This document shows, piece after piece, positions 14,956 through 61,312 of a stretch of 64,000 bases of DNA. How positions within the stretch are numbered: position 1 is the first letter of the stretch; each line of letters opens with the position of its first letter. The notes under the pieces are model-generated. The model was not told the DNA's origin. It did no database searches and was given only the letters and a program-made list of their open reading frames with translations. Where the stretch lies: the NCBI RefSeq assembly GCF_017348835.2, contig NZ_CP071375.1, one strand, 5' to 3'. The stretch is from Escherichia coli. GTDB taxonomy: Bacteria; Pseudomonadota; Gammaproteobacteria; Enterobacterales; Enterobacteriaceae. Made by a program: the position numbers and the translations under genes.

Positions 14956-17198
<2,243 letters not shown>

Positions 17199-30673: not shown

Positions 30674-32215
<1,542 letters not shown>

Positions 32216-32283
32216 CCTTAAAGAAGCGTTCTTTGTAGTGCTCACACAGATTGTCTGATGAAAATGAGCAGTAAAACCTCTAC

Positions 32284-32360
<77 letters not shown>

Positions 32361-32402
32361 AATTTGCACGGCAAATTTGAAGAGGTTTTAACTACATGTT
32401 AT

Positions 32403-32478
32403 GGGGCTATAGCTCAGCTGGGAGAGCGCCTGCTTTGCACGCAGGAGGTCTGCGGTTCGATCCCGCATAGCTCCACCA
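32403..32478 (+). tRNA. alaT: tRNA-Ala (TGC anticodon)
   Basis: GGGGCTATAGCTCAGCTGGGAGAGCGCCTGCTTTGCACGCAGGAGGTCTGCGGTTCGATCCCGCATAGCTCCACCA. Confidence 0.97.
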
Positions 32479-32652
32479 TCTCTGTAGTGATTAAATAAAA
32501 AATACTTCAGAGTGTACCTGCAAAGGTTCACTGCGAAGTTTTGCTCTTTAAAAATCTGGATCAAGCTGAAAATTGAAACACTGAACAATGAAAGTTGTTC
32601 GTGAGTCTCTCAAATTTTCGCAACTCTGAAGTGAAACATCTTCGGGTTGTGA

Positions 32653-35555
<2,903 letters not shown>

Positions 35556-35648
35556 ACAACGCCGAAGGTGTTTTGGCGGATTGAGAGAAGATTTTCAGCC
35601 TGATACAGATTAAATCAGAACGCAGAAGCGGTCTGATAAAACAGAATT

Positions 35649-35768
35649 TGCCTGGCGGCCGTAGCGCGGTGGTCCCACCTGACCCCATGCCGAACTCAGA
35701 AGTGAAACGCCGTAGCGCCGATGGTAGTGTGGGGTCTCCCCATGCGAGAGTAGGGAACTGCCAGGCAT
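35649..35768 (+). rRNA. rrfA: 5S ribosomal RNA
   Basis: TGCCTGGCGGCCGTAGCGCGGTGGTCCCACCTGACCCCATGCCGAACTCAG...CTGCCAGGCAT, 120 nt. Confidence 0.97.
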
Positions 35769-44716: not shown

Positions 44717-44863
44717 GATTCGCCTGAACATGCCCTTTTTTCGTAAGTAAGCAACATAAGCTGTCACGTTTTGTGATGGCTATTAGAAATTCCTATGCAA
44801 CAACTGAAAAAAAATTACAAAAAGTGCTTTCTGAACTGAACAAAAAAGAGTAAAGTTAGTCGC

Positions 44864-44972
44864 GTAGGGTACAGAGGTAAGATGTTCTATCTTTCAGACC
44901 TTTTACTTCACGTAATCGGATTTGGCTGAATATTTTAGCCGCCCCAGTCAGTAATGACTGGGGCGTTTTTTA
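44864..44972 (+). ncRNA. spf: Spot 42 small regulatory RNA
   Basis: GTAGGGTACAGAGGTAAGATGTTCTATCTTTCAGACCTTTTACTTCACGTAATCGGATTTGGCTGAATATTTTAGCCGCCCCAGTCAGTAATGACTGGGGCGTTTTTTA matches the known Spot 42 sequence with its intrinsic terminator; located just downstream of polA as in K-12. Confidence 0.92.
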
Positions 44973-46000: not shown

Positions 46001-46245
46001 ATAGAGCGAGGACGCTAACAGGAACAATGACTCAGGATGAGGGTCAGGAGCGCCAGGAGGCGAAGACAGAGGATTGTCAGGAAGACAAACGTCCGGAGAC
46101 GTAATTAAACGGAAATGGAATCAACACGGATTGTTCCGGCTAATGGAAAAACAGGGTGTGTTGGCGGCCTGCAAGGATTGTAAGACCCGTTAAGGGTTAT
46201 GAGTCAGGAAAAAAGGCGACAGAGTAATCTGTCGCCTTTTTTCTT
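46001..46245 (+). ncRNA. csrC: CsrC small RNA (CsrA-sequestering)
   Basis: About 245 nt with many GGA motifs (AGGACG, CAGGAUGA, CAGGAGC, CAGGAGG, CAGAGGA, CAGGAAG, ACGGAAA...), ending in hairpin GGCGACAGAGTAATCTGTCGCC plus TTTTTTCTTTG; sits between engB and yihI as in K-12. Confidence 0.8.
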
Positions 46246-46311
46246 TGCTTGCTTTCTGTTAGATTCCGCCGCAAATCTATACTGAATAAAACGGCTAAAA
46301 GACGAACCATT

Positions 46312-50212: not shown

Positions 50213-51262
50213 TTATTTCCTGATAGGCAGGTAAACCGAGAACTCGGTATGCCCTGGCCAACTGGTAAATTCAATTTTGCCTGAATGCTGATCAATCAAA
50301 TTACGAGCGATGGATAAGCCAAGCCCGGTGCCACCTTCGCGGCCGCTGACCATCGGGTAAAACAGCGTATCCTGCAAATGAGGCGGAATGCCTGGCCCGT
50401 TATCTTCCACATCAATCCGCGCCGCCAGCCGGTAGCGCTCGCCGTGTAAGGTCAGTTGAAACGCGGTGCGGGTACGCAGAATGATTTCACCACCCTCCGG
50501 CCCCAGCGCCTGTAGCGCATTGCGCACAATATTCAGCAAGACCTGTTCAATTTGATCCGGGTCGTGCGCCAGTTCCGGCAGGCTGGGATCGTAATCACGA
50601 ATCAACCGCACGTTGTCCGGCAGTTCCATCGACACCAGCGTTACCACGCGTTCAGCTACTTTGTGAATACTTTCGGTAACGCGCGTACCGGGCAGCTGCG
50701 GCCCCAACAGACGGTCGACCAGATTTCGCAGCCGGTCCGCCTGTTCGATAATCACTTTGGTATATTCGAGTAGTGACGGGTCAGGTAATGCTTTGCTGAG
50801 TAGCTGCGCCGCGCCACGTAAACCGCCAAGCGGATTTTTAATCTCATGTGCCAGGCCGCGCACTAAATCACGGGCAGCAACCTGCTGGGCGTGCTGTAGT
50901 TGTTCCTGACTTAAGCGGCGCTGGTTATCCATCGGTGCCATCTCCAGCAGGATCATGCCGTCCGGCATACGCTGGGCCGTCACAGAAAGGATATGCGAGC
51001 GCCCGTCGATGACCAGCGTCACTTCGTTATCGGTAAAACCTTGCCCCGCCTCCAGACTTTCTTGCATCAGCTCGATATTTAATGAGAAGTAGCTCAACAG
51101 TTCCGGTAACGGTGTACCAAACAATTTGCGGGAGCTTTGGGCGAGCAGTTGTTGCGCGGCGGGGTTGGCGTAATGGATCGCCAGGTTGTCATCGATTAAC
51201 AAAATACTGTTAATCAGCGAGTTGAGGATCTGCCCAGCATCGGGCTGCGTGCCTGTTGCCAT
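50213..51262 (-). CDS. glnL: Nitrogen regulation sensor histidine kinase NtrB
   Basis: 349-aa ORF, PAS plus HisKA (H-box LAHEIKNPL) plus HATPase. Confidence 0.95.
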
Positions 51263-51349
51263 AAAGCAGTCTCCTGAACAGGTTGCACCATTTTAGTGCA
51301 TTATAGCTTTTTACGGATAAAAAGCGCGAAGCATCAGAGAATTGACGGA

Positions 51350-51419
51350 GAAAAAAGCCCATGCAGAGATGGGCTGAAAGTTTCCACGGCAACTAAATCC
51401 CGGCGTTGTTGCGCCGGGT
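51350..51419 (-). terminator. glnA 3' UTR with two hairpins, distal one a rho-independent terminator (region of the 3'UTR-derived sRNA GlnZ)
   Basis: Minus strand: CCCGGCGCAACAACGCCGGG hairpin 17 nt after glnA stop, then AGCCCATCTCTGCATGGGCT followed by TTTTTT. Confidence 0.55.
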
Positions 51420-51435
51420 AGTACAACTTCAACTA

Positions 51436-52845
51436 TTAGACGCTGTAGTACAGCTCAAACTCTACCGGATGCGGAGTCATACGCACGCGGTCATCTTCTT
51501 CGCGACGCAGAGCGATGTACGCATCGATCGCTTCATCCGTGAACACGCCACCGGCTTTCAGGAACTCGCGGTCCAGATCCAGCTCGTTCAGTGCTTCTTC
51601 CAGAGAGCCTGCAACTTGTGGGATCTCTTTCGCTTCTTCTGGCGGCAGGTCATACAGGTTTTTGTCCATGGCTTCGCCCGGATGGATCTTGTTCTTGATA
51701 CCATCAAGACCGGCCATCAGCAGGGCAGCAAAGCACAGGTACGGGTTAGCCGCCGGATCCGGGAAACGTACTTCGATACGACGTGCTTTCGGAGAAGAAA
51801 CCACCGGAATACGGATAGACGCAGAACGGTTGCGTGCAGAGTAAGCCAGCATTACCGGTGCTTCGTAGCCCGGGACCAGACGCTTATAAGAGTTGGTGGT
51901 CGGGTTTGCCAGGGCGTTAATCGCTTTAGCGTGTTTGATTACGCCGCCAATGTAGTACAGCGCCTGCTCAGACAGACCTGCGTATTTGTCGCCCGCGAAC
52001 AGGTTAACGCCGTTTTTAGACAGCGACATGTGGCAGTGCATACCGGAGCCGTTATCACCGAACATCGGTTTTGGCATAAAGGTCGCGGTTTTACCGAAGC
52101 GGTGCGCCACGTTGTGCACAACATATTTGTAGATCTGAATTTCGTCAGCTTTTTTGGTCATGGTATTGAAGCGGGTAGCCACTTCGTTCTGACCAGCAGT
52201 CGCTACTTCGTGGTGATGGGCTTCAACCACCAGACCCATCTGTTCCATCACCAGACACATTTCAGAACGAATATCCTGAGCAGAGTCTACCGGCGGAACC
52301 GGGAAGTAACCGCCTTTCACTGCCGGACGGTGACCTTTGTTGCCACCTTCGTATTGGGTGGAGGAGTTCCATGCGCCTTCAATATCGTCGATGGCAACGT
52401 GAGAACCGGAGATAGATGATCCGAAACGGATGTCATCGAACAGGAAGAATTCAGGTTCTGGCCCGAACAGTACGGTGTCGGCAATGCCAGTGGAACGCAG
52501 GTAATCTTCGGCGCGCTTCGCAATAGAGCGCGGGTCACGGTCATAGCCTTGCAGGGTGCCAGGTTCAAGGATGTCGCAACGGATAATCAGGGTGGAGTCG
52601 GCGAAGAACGGGTCAATCACTGCGGTGGATGCGTCTGGCATCAGCACCATGTCGGATTCGTTAATGCCTTTCCAGCCGCCAATCGAGGAGCCGTCAAACA
52701 TTTTGCCTTCTTCGAAGAATTCAGCATTCACCTGATGAGCAGGGATAGTGACGTGCTGTTCTTTACCTTTAGTATCGGTGAAGCGCAAATCAACAAACTT
52801 CACTTCGTGCTCGTTCAGCATCGTCAGTACGTGTTCAGCGGACAT
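51436..52845 (-). CDS. glnA: Glutamine synthetase
   Basis: 469-aa ORF recognised as GlnA (adenylylation-site region NLYDLP present). Confidence 0.97.
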
Positions 52846-52927: not shown

Positions 52928-52946
52928 AAGCGAAAACTGTGCCAAC
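52928..52946 (-). promoter_or_regulatory. glnAp2 sigma-54 promoter
   Basis: Minus strand TTGGCACAGTTTTCGCT (-24 GG / -12 GC spacing), about 85 bp upstream of glnA ATG. Confidence 0.7.
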
Positions 52947-53067: not shown

Positions 53068-53217
53068 TGACCTTTGGATAACCCTTTTTATGCTCCGTGA
53101 AAGCGATCACAAAGGGACTCTGCAATACTTGTTTGCGGAGGATGTTTGTGATCCTGTTTTGTAGTGCGATTAATCCGTGTACAATAACGCGCTATTTCTA
53201 ATGCCTGAGGCAAAGTT

Positions 53218-55041
53218 GTGATCGAAAAATTGCGTAATATCGCCATCATCGCGCACGTAGACCATGGTAAAACCACCCTGGTAGACAAGCTGCTCCAACA
53301 ATCCGGTACGTTCGACTCTCGTGCCGAAACCCAAGAGCGCGTGATGGACTCCAACGATTTGGAGAAAGAGCGTGGGATTACCATCCTCGCGAAAAACACC
53401 GCTATCAAATGGAATGATTACCGTATCAACATCGTTGATACCCCGGGGCACGCCGACTTCGGTGGTGAAGTTGAACGTGTAATGTCCATGGTAGACTCAG
53501 TGCTGCTGGTGGTTGACGCATTTGACGGCCCGATGCCGCAAACGCGCTTCGTAACCAAAAAAGCGTTTGCTTACGGCCTGAAGCCGATTGTTGTTATCAA
53601 CAAAGTTGACCGCCCTGGCGCGCGTCCTGATTGGGTTGTGGATCAGGTATTCGATCTGTTCGTTAACCTCGACGCGACCGACGAGCAGCTGGACTTCCCG
53701 ATCGTTTACGCTTCTGCGCTTAACGGTATCGCGGGTCTGGACCACGAAGATATGGCGGAAGACATGACCCCGCTGTATCAGGCGATTGTTGATCACGTTC
53801 CTGCGCCGGACGTTGACCTTGACGGTCCGTTCCAGATGCAGATTTCTCAGCTCGATTACAACAGCTATGTTGGCGTTATCGGCATTGGCCGCATCAAGCG
53901 CGGTAAAGTGAAGCCGAACCAGCAGGTCACTATCATCGATAGCGAAGGCAAAACCCGCAACGCGAAAGTCGGTAAAGTGCTGGGCCACCTCGGTCTGGAA
54001 CGTATCGAAACCGATCTGGCGGAAGCTGGCGATATCGTGGCGATCACGGGCCTGGGCGAACTGAACATTTCTGACACCGTTTGCGACACGCAAAACGTTG
54101 AAGCGCTGCCGGCACTCTCCGTTGATGAGCCGACCGTTTCTATGTTCTTCTGCGTTAACACCTCGCCGTTCTGCGGTAAAGAAGGTAAGTTCGTAACGTC
54201 TCGTCAGATCCTGGATCGTCTGAACAAAGAACTGGTACACAACGTTGCGCTGCGCGTAGAAGAAACCGAAGACGCCGATGCGTTCCGCGTTTCTGGTCGT
54301 GGCGAACTGCACCTGTCTGTTCTGATCGAAAACATGCGTCGTGAAGGTTTCGAACTGGCGGTATCCCGTCCGAAAGTTATCTTCCGTGAAATCGACGGTC
54401 GTAAACAAGAGCCGTATGAAAACGTGACTCTGGACGTTGAAGAACAGCATCAGGGTTCTGTAATGCAGGCGCTGGGCGAACGTAAAGGCGACCTGAAAAA
54501 CATGAATCCAGACGGTAAAGGCCGCGTACGTCTCGACTACGTGATCCCAAGTCGTGGTCTGATTGGCTTCCGTTCTGAGTTCATGACCATGACTTCCGGT
54601 ACTGGTCTGCTGTACTCCACCTTCAGCCACTACGACGACGTACGTCCGGGCGAAGTGGGTCAGCGTCAGAACGGTGTACTGATCTCTAACGGTCAGGGTA
54701 AAGCGGTCGCGTTCGCGCTGTTCGGTCTGCAGGATCGCGGTAAGCTGTTCCTCGGTCACGGTGCAGAAGTTTACGAAGGTCAAATTATCGGTATTCACAG
54801 CCGCTCTAACGACCTGACTGTAAACTGCCTGACCGGTAAGAAACTGACCAACATGCGTGCTTCCGGTACTGACGAAGCCGTTGTTCTGGTTCCGCCTATC
54901 CGCATGACTCTGGAACAAGCTCTGGAGTTCATCGATGATGACGAACTGGTAGAAGTGACTCCGACCTCTATTCGTATTCGTAAACGTCACCTGACGGAAA
55001 ACGATCGTCGCCGCGCCAACCGCGCACCGAAAGACGATTAA
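53218..55041 (+). CDS. typA: Ribosome-associated translational GTPase BipA/TypA
   Basis: 607-aa ORF, GTG start, EF-G-like GTPase ([14 protein letters not shown]). Confidence 0.95.
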
Positions 55042-55060
55042 TTTCGTTTTTTAGTCATAA

Positions 55061-55090
55061 AAAACCTGCCAGCGATGGCAGGTTTTTTTT
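55061..55090 (+). terminator. Rho-independent terminator after typA
   Basis: AAACCTGCCAGCGATGGCAGGTTT hairpin followed by TTTTTTTTTG. Confidence 0.75.
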
Positions 55091-55257
55091 TGCCTGTCGT
55101 GAGCGCACACCAATGCGAGTATCTCCCTTATAAGTCTGTGATTACGTCAATAGAGAGCTTTGTCACAATTATCTGCAAAGTCATACACCGTTAATTGCTT
55201 TCTTTTTTGGCGTAAGCGTAAGATGCTTCATCTGGTTTAAACCAAAAGGATTAAACA

Positions 55258-60098: not shown

Positions 60099-60986
60099 TC
60101 AGGCTGCCAGATCATTATTTCCGATGGAAGCATAATAAGCTTTTTCTGCTTCTGCCGGAGGAATATGGCCCAGCCTTTCCAGCAATCGTCGATTGTTATA
60201 CCAGTCCACCCACGTTAGTGTGGCCAGTTCCACTTCTGTCCGGTTTTTCCAGCTCTTACGGTGTATTACCTCCGCTTTGTAAAGACCATTGATGCTCTCA
60301 GCCATCGCGTTGTCATACGAGTCGCCAGTACTCCCTGTTGATGCCAGTAATCCGGCTTCCTTAAGCCGCTGCGTGTAGGCCAGCGATACATACTGAGAAC
60401 CTTTATCACTGTGATGGATTGTGCCGGACGGCCGACGGGCCCACAACGCCTGCTCCAGTGCATCCAGCACGAATGTTGTTTCCATGGATGATGAGACCTG
60501 CCATCCCACGATGTATCCGGCGAACACATCAATGATGAACGCCACATAAACGAAGCCCTGCCATGTGCTTACCCAGGTAAAATCAGCCACCCACAACTGG
60601 TCTGGACGTTCTGCCACGAACTGACGGTTTACGCGGTCGCATGCGGCAACGGCTTTCCGGCTGACGGTAGTGCGGACCTTTTTACCCCGGAGAACACCGG
60701 CAAGTCCCATAACTGCCATGAGACGTGCCACAGTGCATCTGGCCACTCTGATACCTTCCCGTAACAACTGACGCCAGACTTTACGCACACCGTATACCTG
60801 GTGATTTTCATCGTATACGCGCTGTATCTCTTTCTTCAGCCAGTCATCGTGCTGCGCACGGGCACTGCGTTTATCCGGATGATGTCGCTGTTGCTGACAA
60901 TGGTAATACGTTGACGGGGCAATATGCAGTTCGCTGCATACCGGTCCGCCCCCGTACTGCTCACGCAGCTTATCCAGCAGTGGCAT
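60099..60986 (-). CDS. IS629 transposase OrfB (DDE catalytic part)
   Basis: 295-aa ORF in the -1 frame relative to OrfA, overlapping its stop (AAAAAATAATG); DDE integrase-like (…WVADFTW…HSDKGSQY…). Confidence 0.9.
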   Translation of the reverse strand: MPLLDKLREQYGGGPVCSELHIAPSTYYHCQQQRHHPDKRSARAQHDDWLKKEIQRVYDENHQVYGVRKVWRQLLREGIRVARCTVARLMAVMGLAGVLRGKKVRTTVSRKAVAACDRVNRQFVAERPDQLWVADFTWVSTWQGFVYVAFIIDVFAGYIVGWQVSSSMETTFVLDALEQALWARRPSGTIHHSDKGSQYVSLAYTQRLKEAGLLASTGSTGDSYDNAMAESINGLYKAEVIHRKSWKNRTEVELATLTWVDWYNNRRLLERLGHIPPAEAEKAYYASIGNNDLAA

Positions 60987-61312
60987 TATTTTTTCCAGAG
61001 GCGGTCGAACTCCGCCTTCGCAAAATAAGCGGAAGCCTGGCGAAGGATATCGTTACTGCGGCGCAGTTCACGATTTTCACGTTCCAGCTCTTTCAGACGC
61101 TGACGTTCAGCGGTGGTGAGTCCACCATCACCACTCCCGGTATCCCGCTCATGCTGGCGAACCCAGACACGCAGAGTCTCCGGCGTACAGCCAATCTTTG
61201 GGGCAATGGAACAAATTGCCGCCCACTGTGAGTCATATTCATCCTGACTTTCCAGAACCATACGAATCGCCCGCTGACGGACTTCGGGGGAAAAACGAGT
61301 ATTTTTAGTCAT
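60986..61312 (-). CDS. IS629 transposase OrfA (HTH DNA-binding part)
   Basis: 108-aa [26 protein letters not shown]... with leucine-zipper-like C-terminus, typical IS3 OrfA. Confidence 0.9.

Follow-up and report, generated by a model that had tools for sequence, protein, structure and literature searches.

The window analysed here is a stretch of 64,000 nucleotides of Escherichia coli DNA. On its minus strand, the glnA stop codon (TAA, 51438-51436) is followed by the glnL start codon (ATG at 51262), and the element between them, at 51435-51351, has the position of the small RNA (sRNA) GlnZ. The parental transcript is the glnA mRNA, and the sRNA comes from its 3′ end. The features of the locus are as follows.

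52929-52944, minus strand: sigma-54 elements TGGCAC-N5-TCGCT, presumably glnAp2 (read from the sequence)
51436-52845, minus strand: glnA coding sequence, glutamine synthetase, 469 aa (open reading frame list and the glnA annotation in identical E. coli records)
51351-51435, minus strand: very probable GlnZ of the O157 type, or class I (synonym EsrF), comprising the whole 85-nt glnA 3′ UTR (read from the sequence; published length; identity to O157:H7)
51419-51435, minus strand: 5′ spacer UAGUUGAAGUUGUACUA (read from the sequence; compared with the minimal alleles of loci L082 and L015)
51399-51418, minus strand: hairpin 1, CCCGGCG / CAACAA / CGCCGGG, seven G-C pairs (fold and hairpin scan)
51377-51397, minus strand: GlnZ seed UUUAGUUGCCGUGGAAACUUU, 21 nt, in the linker between the hairpins (identity to the K-12 seed; target pairing)
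51351-51375, minus strand: Rho-independent terminator (hairpin 2), AGCCCAU-CUCUGC-AUGGGCU and six U (hairpin scan)
51284-51305, minus strand: glnL promoter, with the −10 element TATAAT (51305-51300) and the adjoining NtrC operator TGCACTAAAATGGTGCA (51300-51284)

From the first base past the glnA stop to the last U of the terminator, the 3′ UTR measures exactly 85 nt and reads UAGUUGAAGUUGUACUA-CCCGGCG-CAACAA-CGCCGGG-A-UUUAGUUGCCGUGGAAACUUU-C-AGCCCAU-CUCUGC-AUGGGCU-UUUUU. The 5′ spacer holds two copies of AGUUG, echoing the AGUUG at the start of the seed. Hairpin 1 begins 17 nt past the stop and is not followed by a continuous U run, the next letters being AUUUAGUU. A 23-nt linker containing the seed separates it from hairpin 2, whose stem-loop (51375-51356) has a 7-bp stem and a 6-nt loop; the first U of the run, which extends to 51351, closes the stem. 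Hairpin 2 has the GC-rich stem-loop and subsequent U run of an intrinsic terminator, and it carries at the 3′ end the GCCCAU...AUGGGC stem of the GlnZ terminator. It is presumed to form both the 3′ end of GlnZ and its Hfq-binding 3′ module. A simple hairpin scan picks out both structures. The folding energy of a 101-nt stretch was −31.5 kcal/mol, compared with −21.95 ± 3.04 for 200 dinucleotide shuffles (z = −3.1), and none of the 200 shuffles folded as well. A small open reading frame at 51210-51392 (minus strand, 60 aa, TTG start), which overlaps the terminator and, out of frame, glnL, was set aside as spurious.

The original prediction had described two successive hairpins 3′ of glnA, and these are indeed present at 51418-51399 and 51375-51356 on the minus strand. 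It read the character of both correctly, the first as GC-rich without a U-tract and the second as a canonical terminator with a U-run, but its distances were loose: hairpin 1 does not come immediately after the stop, and the spacing is not about 30 nt. The range it gave, 51343-51435, covers the 85-nt UTR and 8 nt past the terminator. Its placement of the element between glnA and the glnL promoter agrees with the −10 element and start codon of glnL found here.

A 238-nt query that starts in the 3′ end of glnA, takes in the UTR and reaches glnL matches E. coli O157:H7 and many other strains with 100% identity. A 65-nt segment diagnostic of this allele is identical in O157:H7 and in enteropathogenic E. 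coli (EPEC) O127:H6, and a 24.5-kb stretch of the window is 100% identical to the porcine E. coli isolate PE164. As the window is E. coli, matches PE164 and carries a stretch identical to O157:H7, its element can be equated with the published 85-nt GlnZ. PE164 (NZ_CP114128.1, 3,300,755-3,335,150) came from a pig with diarrhoea and encodes EspX2, Cif, NleH and an EspJ pseudogene; by these type III secretion effectors, this carrier of the short GlnZ allele is EPEC/EHEC-like.

The RNA itself has been described. [quoted passage not shown] Under the name EsrF, an 85-nt transcript was defined by 5′ and 3′ RACE and Northern blotting, with its 5′ end at the base next to the glnA stop, and it was lost in an hfq deletion mutant (PMC8092317). 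The O157 RNA was shown to be a functional GlnZ (PMC9731577; bioRxiv 10.1101/2022.04.01.486790). Walling et al. named the short form class I GlnZ and found that EsrF is induced by nitrogen deprivation and represses glnP, sucA and aceE, the glnP case being backed by compensatory mutants (bioRxiv 10.1101/2022.04.01.486790). In EPEC, GlnZ is covered by Hfq RIL-seq (PMC8550237). We therefore consider it very likely that 51351-51435 on the minus strand is the O157-type, class I GlnZ (EsrF): an RNA released by RNase E, induced through NtrC, bound by Hfq and repressing sucA, glnP and aceE through its seed. For the strain of the window, such functional statements are carried over from identical or homologous sequences and should be read as predictions. 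The identification as GlnZ made in the original prediction is borne out by the K-12 seed and terminator and by complete identity to the O157:H7 allele, while the RNA of 100–200 nt that it expected is mis-sized for this allele, which should give an RNA of ~85 nt alongside precursors that are a little longer and a processed form that is shorter. The feature is already published and ordinary, and the window brings no new biology.

The window allele was aligned with those of K-12, an O111-type strain and another K-12-type strain. Only two blocks are common to all of them: the 21-nt seed, and the terminator with everything downstream. The seed is identical at 21 of 21 nt to the K-12 glnZ seed, which directly follows the K-12 glnA stop, and the terminator is the same in the K-12, O111-type and window alleles. 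In MG1655, this glnA-glnL locus is annotated with the ncRNA glnZ (b4836, 194 nt). The O111-type allele equals the window allele with an insertion of 145 nt after CGCCGG, inside the 3′ arm of hairpin 1. This insertion, seen in strain 14EC029, sits between hairpin 1 and the seed and has AGGTTCAAA direct repeats. Among 5,426 complete E. coli genomes, the full 65-nt diagnostic of the short allele was found in 2,857 (53%). In 993 (18%) it breaks off after 41–42 nt, the O111-type pattern, and the remaining ~29%, which include the K-12 REP type, lack it. One further genome, strain AMSHJX01, matched the query only from the terminator-proximal part, with ybhP and clsB pseudogene fragments in place of glnA upstream of glnL, a sign that its glnA locus has been either rearranged or misassembled.

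The distribution of the seed and terminator beyond E. coli was examined by scanning one genome per species for the pattern GCCGTGGAAACTTT-N1-3-GCCC, which gave at least 120 loci. In 96 of these listed loci the match lies 15–220 nt past the glnA stop (...ELYYSV*) and is followed by the same terminator, GCCCAUC-loop-GAUGGGC and a U run; the core GCCGUGGAAACUUU is thus present after glnA in at least 96 loci of other genomes. The genera with the glnA-linked arrangement include Citrobacter, Enterobacter, Pantoea, Erwinia, Serratia, Yersinia, Rahnella, Dickeya, Brenneria, Lonsdalea, Edwardsiella and Plesiomonas. About 20 of the listed hits, in unrelated phyla and lacking the terminator, are the chance matches to be expected. 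The 14-nt seed core was fixed by the design of the scan, so that the evidence here lies in position and context and not in independent conservation of the core. Flanks that the pattern left free are kept as well: on the upstream side a U-rich run and then GUU, and in the terminator its 3′ arm. Over 33 distinct sequences taken from other genomes, 96.6% of the cells of the terminator stem are paired, and shuffles do equally well; covariation statistics are uninformative because the stem is nearly invariant. A compensatory change from C-G to U-A is seen at the innermost stem pair of a Yersinia terminator. A Plesiomonas terminator (GCCCGC...GCGGGC) looks compensatory, yet is misaligned by one column. 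The seed-plus-terminator module follows glnA across the Enterobacterales with a very variable spacer.

For the target analysis, sucA, glnP and aceE sequences were taken from PE164, whose sdhB-sucA and pdhR-aceE intergenic regions are identical to those of K-12. Duplexes of the whole 85-nt RNA with whole leaders gave meaningless end-to-end pairings, no better than those of shuffles, and were replaced by seed-only duplexes computed with the 23-nt linker. The seed paired with sucA at −48 to −27 (−20.4 kcal/mol) and with glnP at −22 to −11, just upstream of the Shine-Dalgarno sequence (−18.4 kcal/mol). With aceE it paired at −105 to −91 (−20.8 kcal/mol), with 13 consecutive pairs that include the published C-99. 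All three in silico duplexes of the seed, with sucA, glnP and aceE, therefore fall at the published sites. Duplexes as good as those with sucA, aceE and glnP arose in 7, 6 and 36, respectively, of 426 tiles of 300 nt from the window, and with 28, 3 and 26 of 1000 shuffled seeds; the glnP duplex is only moderately above background (36/426) and not exceptional. Essentially every one of the 5,426 E. coli genomes keeps both the sucA and the glnP site, and the target sites have been validated by compensatory mutations, partly with the O157 RNA (PMC9731577; bioRxiv 10.1101/2022.04.01.486790). The isolated fold of the 85-nt RNA, which counts against the proposed pairing, leaves the seed only partly open: its unpaired probability averages 0.55, and positions 41–43 and 54–57 are predicted to be paired.

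The elements TGGCAC-N5-TCGCT upstream of glnA (52944-52929), which we take to be the NtrC-activated promoter glnAp2, are preceded by NtrC-type sites at 53066-53050 and 53034-53018. Both of these sites are overlapped by a full-length match to the Rfam sRNA ES222 (RF02755; 53029-53136, plus strand; 133 bits against a gathering score of 62), situated between the divergent genes glnA and typA and antisense to the sequence upstream of glnA; a terminator-like hairpin is present there on the plus strand at 53118-53140. At the other end of the locus, TGCACTAAAATGGTGCA is a perfect palindromic NtrC site that directly abuts TATAAT, 46 nt beyond the last base of GlnZ. By what is established for the glnALG operon, we take the pair to be the classical autoregulated glnLp, and this region marks the downstream boundary of the GlnZ locus.

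[quoted passage not shown] Right after hairpin 1, the sequence GGGA↓UUUAG fits the RNase E consensus RN↓WUU, and the position of GGGA↓UUU matches both the start of K-12 GlnZ194 relative to the seed and the cut site of Salmonella GlnZ2. On the basis of this fit and of these equivalent positions, we infer a second RNase E site here that would release a core RNA of ~47 nt comprising seed and terminator. Such a core is consistent with the 'processed species' reported for O157 (PMC9731577).

These elements suggest the following course of events. Under nitrogen limitation, NtrC would activate glnAp2 and drive glnA and GlnZ together, and part of the transcription would end at the intrinsic terminator, 85 nt beyond the glnA stop. 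RNase E would cut close to the stop codon and probably a second time at GGGA↓UUU; the products would be the ~85-nt RNA and the ~47-nt core, and Hfq binding would stabilise the released RNA. The single-stranded seed UUUAGUUGCCGUGGAAACUUU would then pair with the leaders of sucA, glnP and aceE and repress them, and this repression would shift 2-oxoglutarate towards the synthesis of glutamate and glutamine.

The same sequence has been given a different interpretation. Jia et al. (2021) described EsrF as an independently transcribed sRNA whose own sigma-70 promoter lies within the 3′ end of glnA. In their model it is repressed by NtrC and so higher in high ammonium, and it serves mainly to activate flhB, and with it motility and virulence, through GGGAUUUAG, that is, the 3′ arm of hairpin 1 and the linker. 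[quoted passage not shown] In the window, the sequence before the 5′ end that comes closest to a sigma-70 promoter (TCCGCA-17-TGTACT) agrees at 7 of 12 positions, 29 positions in glnA are as good or better, and a stricter scan found no sigma-70 promoter on the minus strand. The weakness of this match is suggestive evidence against EsrF being a primary transcript. As regards flhB, binding of its leader was seen by EMSA (PMC8092317), and the leader contains the complementary CUAAAUCCC at about −97 to −82 (K-12 sequence). The duplex (−19.8 kcal/mol) is no better than those of shuffles (133/1000), however, and it needs the 3′ arm of hairpin 1, which is closed with an unpaired probability of ~0. 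As far as sequence can tell, the evidence favours GlnZ processed from glnA mRNA, and we consider an independent, NtrC-repressed EsrF improbable.

A related question is whether the three E. coli GlnZ alleles are functionally unequal, with hairpin 1 and the GGGAUUUAG linker giving the short allele an extra property of its own. We think this rather unlikely. Were the alleles unequal, the short one might have a second face for pairing, as claimed for EsrF (flhB, motility, virulence), or a distinct RNase E processing to the ~47-nt core.

Within GlnZ of the O157 type, hairpin 1 lies outside the conserved core. Across the listed Enterobacterales loci, the spacer between stop and seed ranges from 15 to 220 nt and is an insertion hot spot. 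Minimal spacers consist of 15–24 U-rich nucleotides, and in many lineages the spacer holds GC hairpins that are unrelated in sequence, or palindromic inserts of ~140 nt; the latter resemble one another across genera, for example in ...GAATTTCGCGTTGCAGCAAGGCGGCAA.... Because spacers elsewhere hold such varied hairpins and inserts, hairpin 1 is to be regarded as a lineage-variable spacer element. The original prediction took the architecture of two hairpins as the mark of GlnZ. Both hairpins are there, yet hairpin 1 is missing from K-12 GlnZ and from many other Enterobacterales and so cannot be defining; what defines GlnZ is the linker seed, which that reading overlooked. A homologous hairpin occupies the same place in five Enterobacter loci (L013, L041, L062, L085 and L115). 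Removal of nucleotides 13–46 (34 nt) turns the UTR of the window into the minimal sequence of locus L082, and AGUUG flanks this 34-nt segment on both sides, which suggests that the segment may be an old small insertion. Hairpin 1 is probably a spacer insertion that the RNA tolerates, holding the 5′ part in a folded state while the seed stays exposed.

Such an insertion could in principle be a copy of a dispersed palindromic repeat, similar to REP/BIME, ERIC or MITE elements, that landed in the 3′ UTR. The variability of the spacer, the REP insertion of the K-12 allele and the 145-nt insertion of the O111 type are in keeping with this origin, as are the AGUUG flanks and the minimal L082 sequence left on removal of the segment. 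In E. coli, however, hairpin 1 is not a member of a dispersed family, because its 36-nt segment has exactly one place per genome in all 3,850 of the 3,850 E. coli genomes that have it (E ≤ 10, sensitive mode). The exact palindrome likewise occurs once in the window, against 0.00 occurrences expected by chance. Multiple copies being lacking, the candidate was rejected as a dispersed repeat in E. coli, and we hold such an origin to be unlikely.

That both hairpins serve purely in cis as ends of the glnA mRNA, as a stabilising stem and an operon-internal terminator that sets glnA against glnLG, with no trans-acting RNA, is highly improbable: hairpin 2 is a canonical terminator, its deletion in K-12 slightly lowers GlnA (PMC9731577), and unrelated GC hairpins occur in the same spacer in many genera, as generic 3′ stabilisers would, but this leaves unexplained the 21-nt single-stranded identity between otherwise differing alleles, the fixed position of the seed beside the terminator across an order and its complementarity to sucA, glnP and aceE, and compensatory mutations and seed-dependent repression in trans are already published for this allele (PMC9731577; bioRxiv 10.1101/2022.04.01.486790).

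The O157-type GlnZ of the window can be set beside several named systems. EsrF of O157:H7 EDL933 matches it in sequence over 238 nt, is likewise 85 nt long and has spacer, hairpin, seed and terminator in the same order, so that only the host strain differs. K-12 GlnZ (b4836, 194 nt, class III) shares the locus, the seed, the terminator and the downstream glnL promoter region. Its seed, however, comes right after the stop, a REP-containing insertion of ~110 nt precedes the terminator and hairpin 1 is absent; in the window allele, by contrast, hairpin 1 comes first and is followed by the seed, which adjoins the terminator. According to the literature, K-12 GlnZ likewise targets sucA, glnP and aceE. 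GlnZ of Salmonella enterica (185 nt, class II), compared here by its published description, has a spacer of ~140 nt unrelated to that of the window. It is processed to GlnZ2 of ~50 nt, which parallels the ~47-nt core predicted here. In Salmonella, the short seed-plus-terminator species suffices for repression of sucA, and an extra G beside the seed changes the specificity for aceE and deoD (PMC9731577). The sRNAs CpxQ, SdhX, NarS and MalH are also released by RNase E and dependent on Hfq, carry a seed near an intrinsic terminator and act in the same pathway as the encoded protein (PMC9731577). Their loci, seeds and targets are different, and the likeness is one of mechanism and not of homology.

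A search of the whole window with Rfam 15 found no family at its gathering threshold over GlnZ, and no GlnZ family was found. The closest relation is to Ysr49 (Yersinia sRNA 49, RF02766), which aligns to the seed and terminator of the window and leaves the spacer part of the model unmatched. With 34.1 bits against a gathering score of 95 (E = 4.4e-4), in the seed and terminator part only, the window does not qualify as a Ysr49 member; this sub-threshold alignment runs from 51351 to 51455 on the minus strand. In a Yersinia-type locus (L092, 5303-5426, plus strand), a Ysr49 match of 151 bits spans the glnA stop, spacer, seed and terminator, and on this ground Ysr49 is a GlnZ homologue filed under a different name. 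No Rfam model catches the E. coli GlnZ alleles. Elsewhere in the window, matches at gathering score, at 15310-15561, 30674-35766, 44854-44972, 46001-46254, 55026-55094 and 60915-61031, are to Erse sRNA, a complete rrn operon with two tRNAs, Spot 42, CsrC, STnc370, which directly follows typA, and, on the minus strand, an ALIL pseudoknot. An ALIL pseudoknot typically marks the frameshift site of an IS3-family element.

The RefSeq/PGAP record checked for a strain with the short allele has no ncRNA at glnA-glnL, and a BLAST search with K-12 glnZ misses the short allele (PMC8550237). Since PGAP, Rfam 15 and K-12 BLAST all miss it, about half of E. coli genomes carry an sRNA that is characterised yet unannotated, and it is mainly for annotation that recognition of the short allele matters. 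GlnZ joins nitrogen assimilation to flux through the TCA cycle: one mRNA gives rise both to glutamine synthetase and to an sRNA that lowers 2-oxoglutarate dehydrogenase and the import of glutamine.
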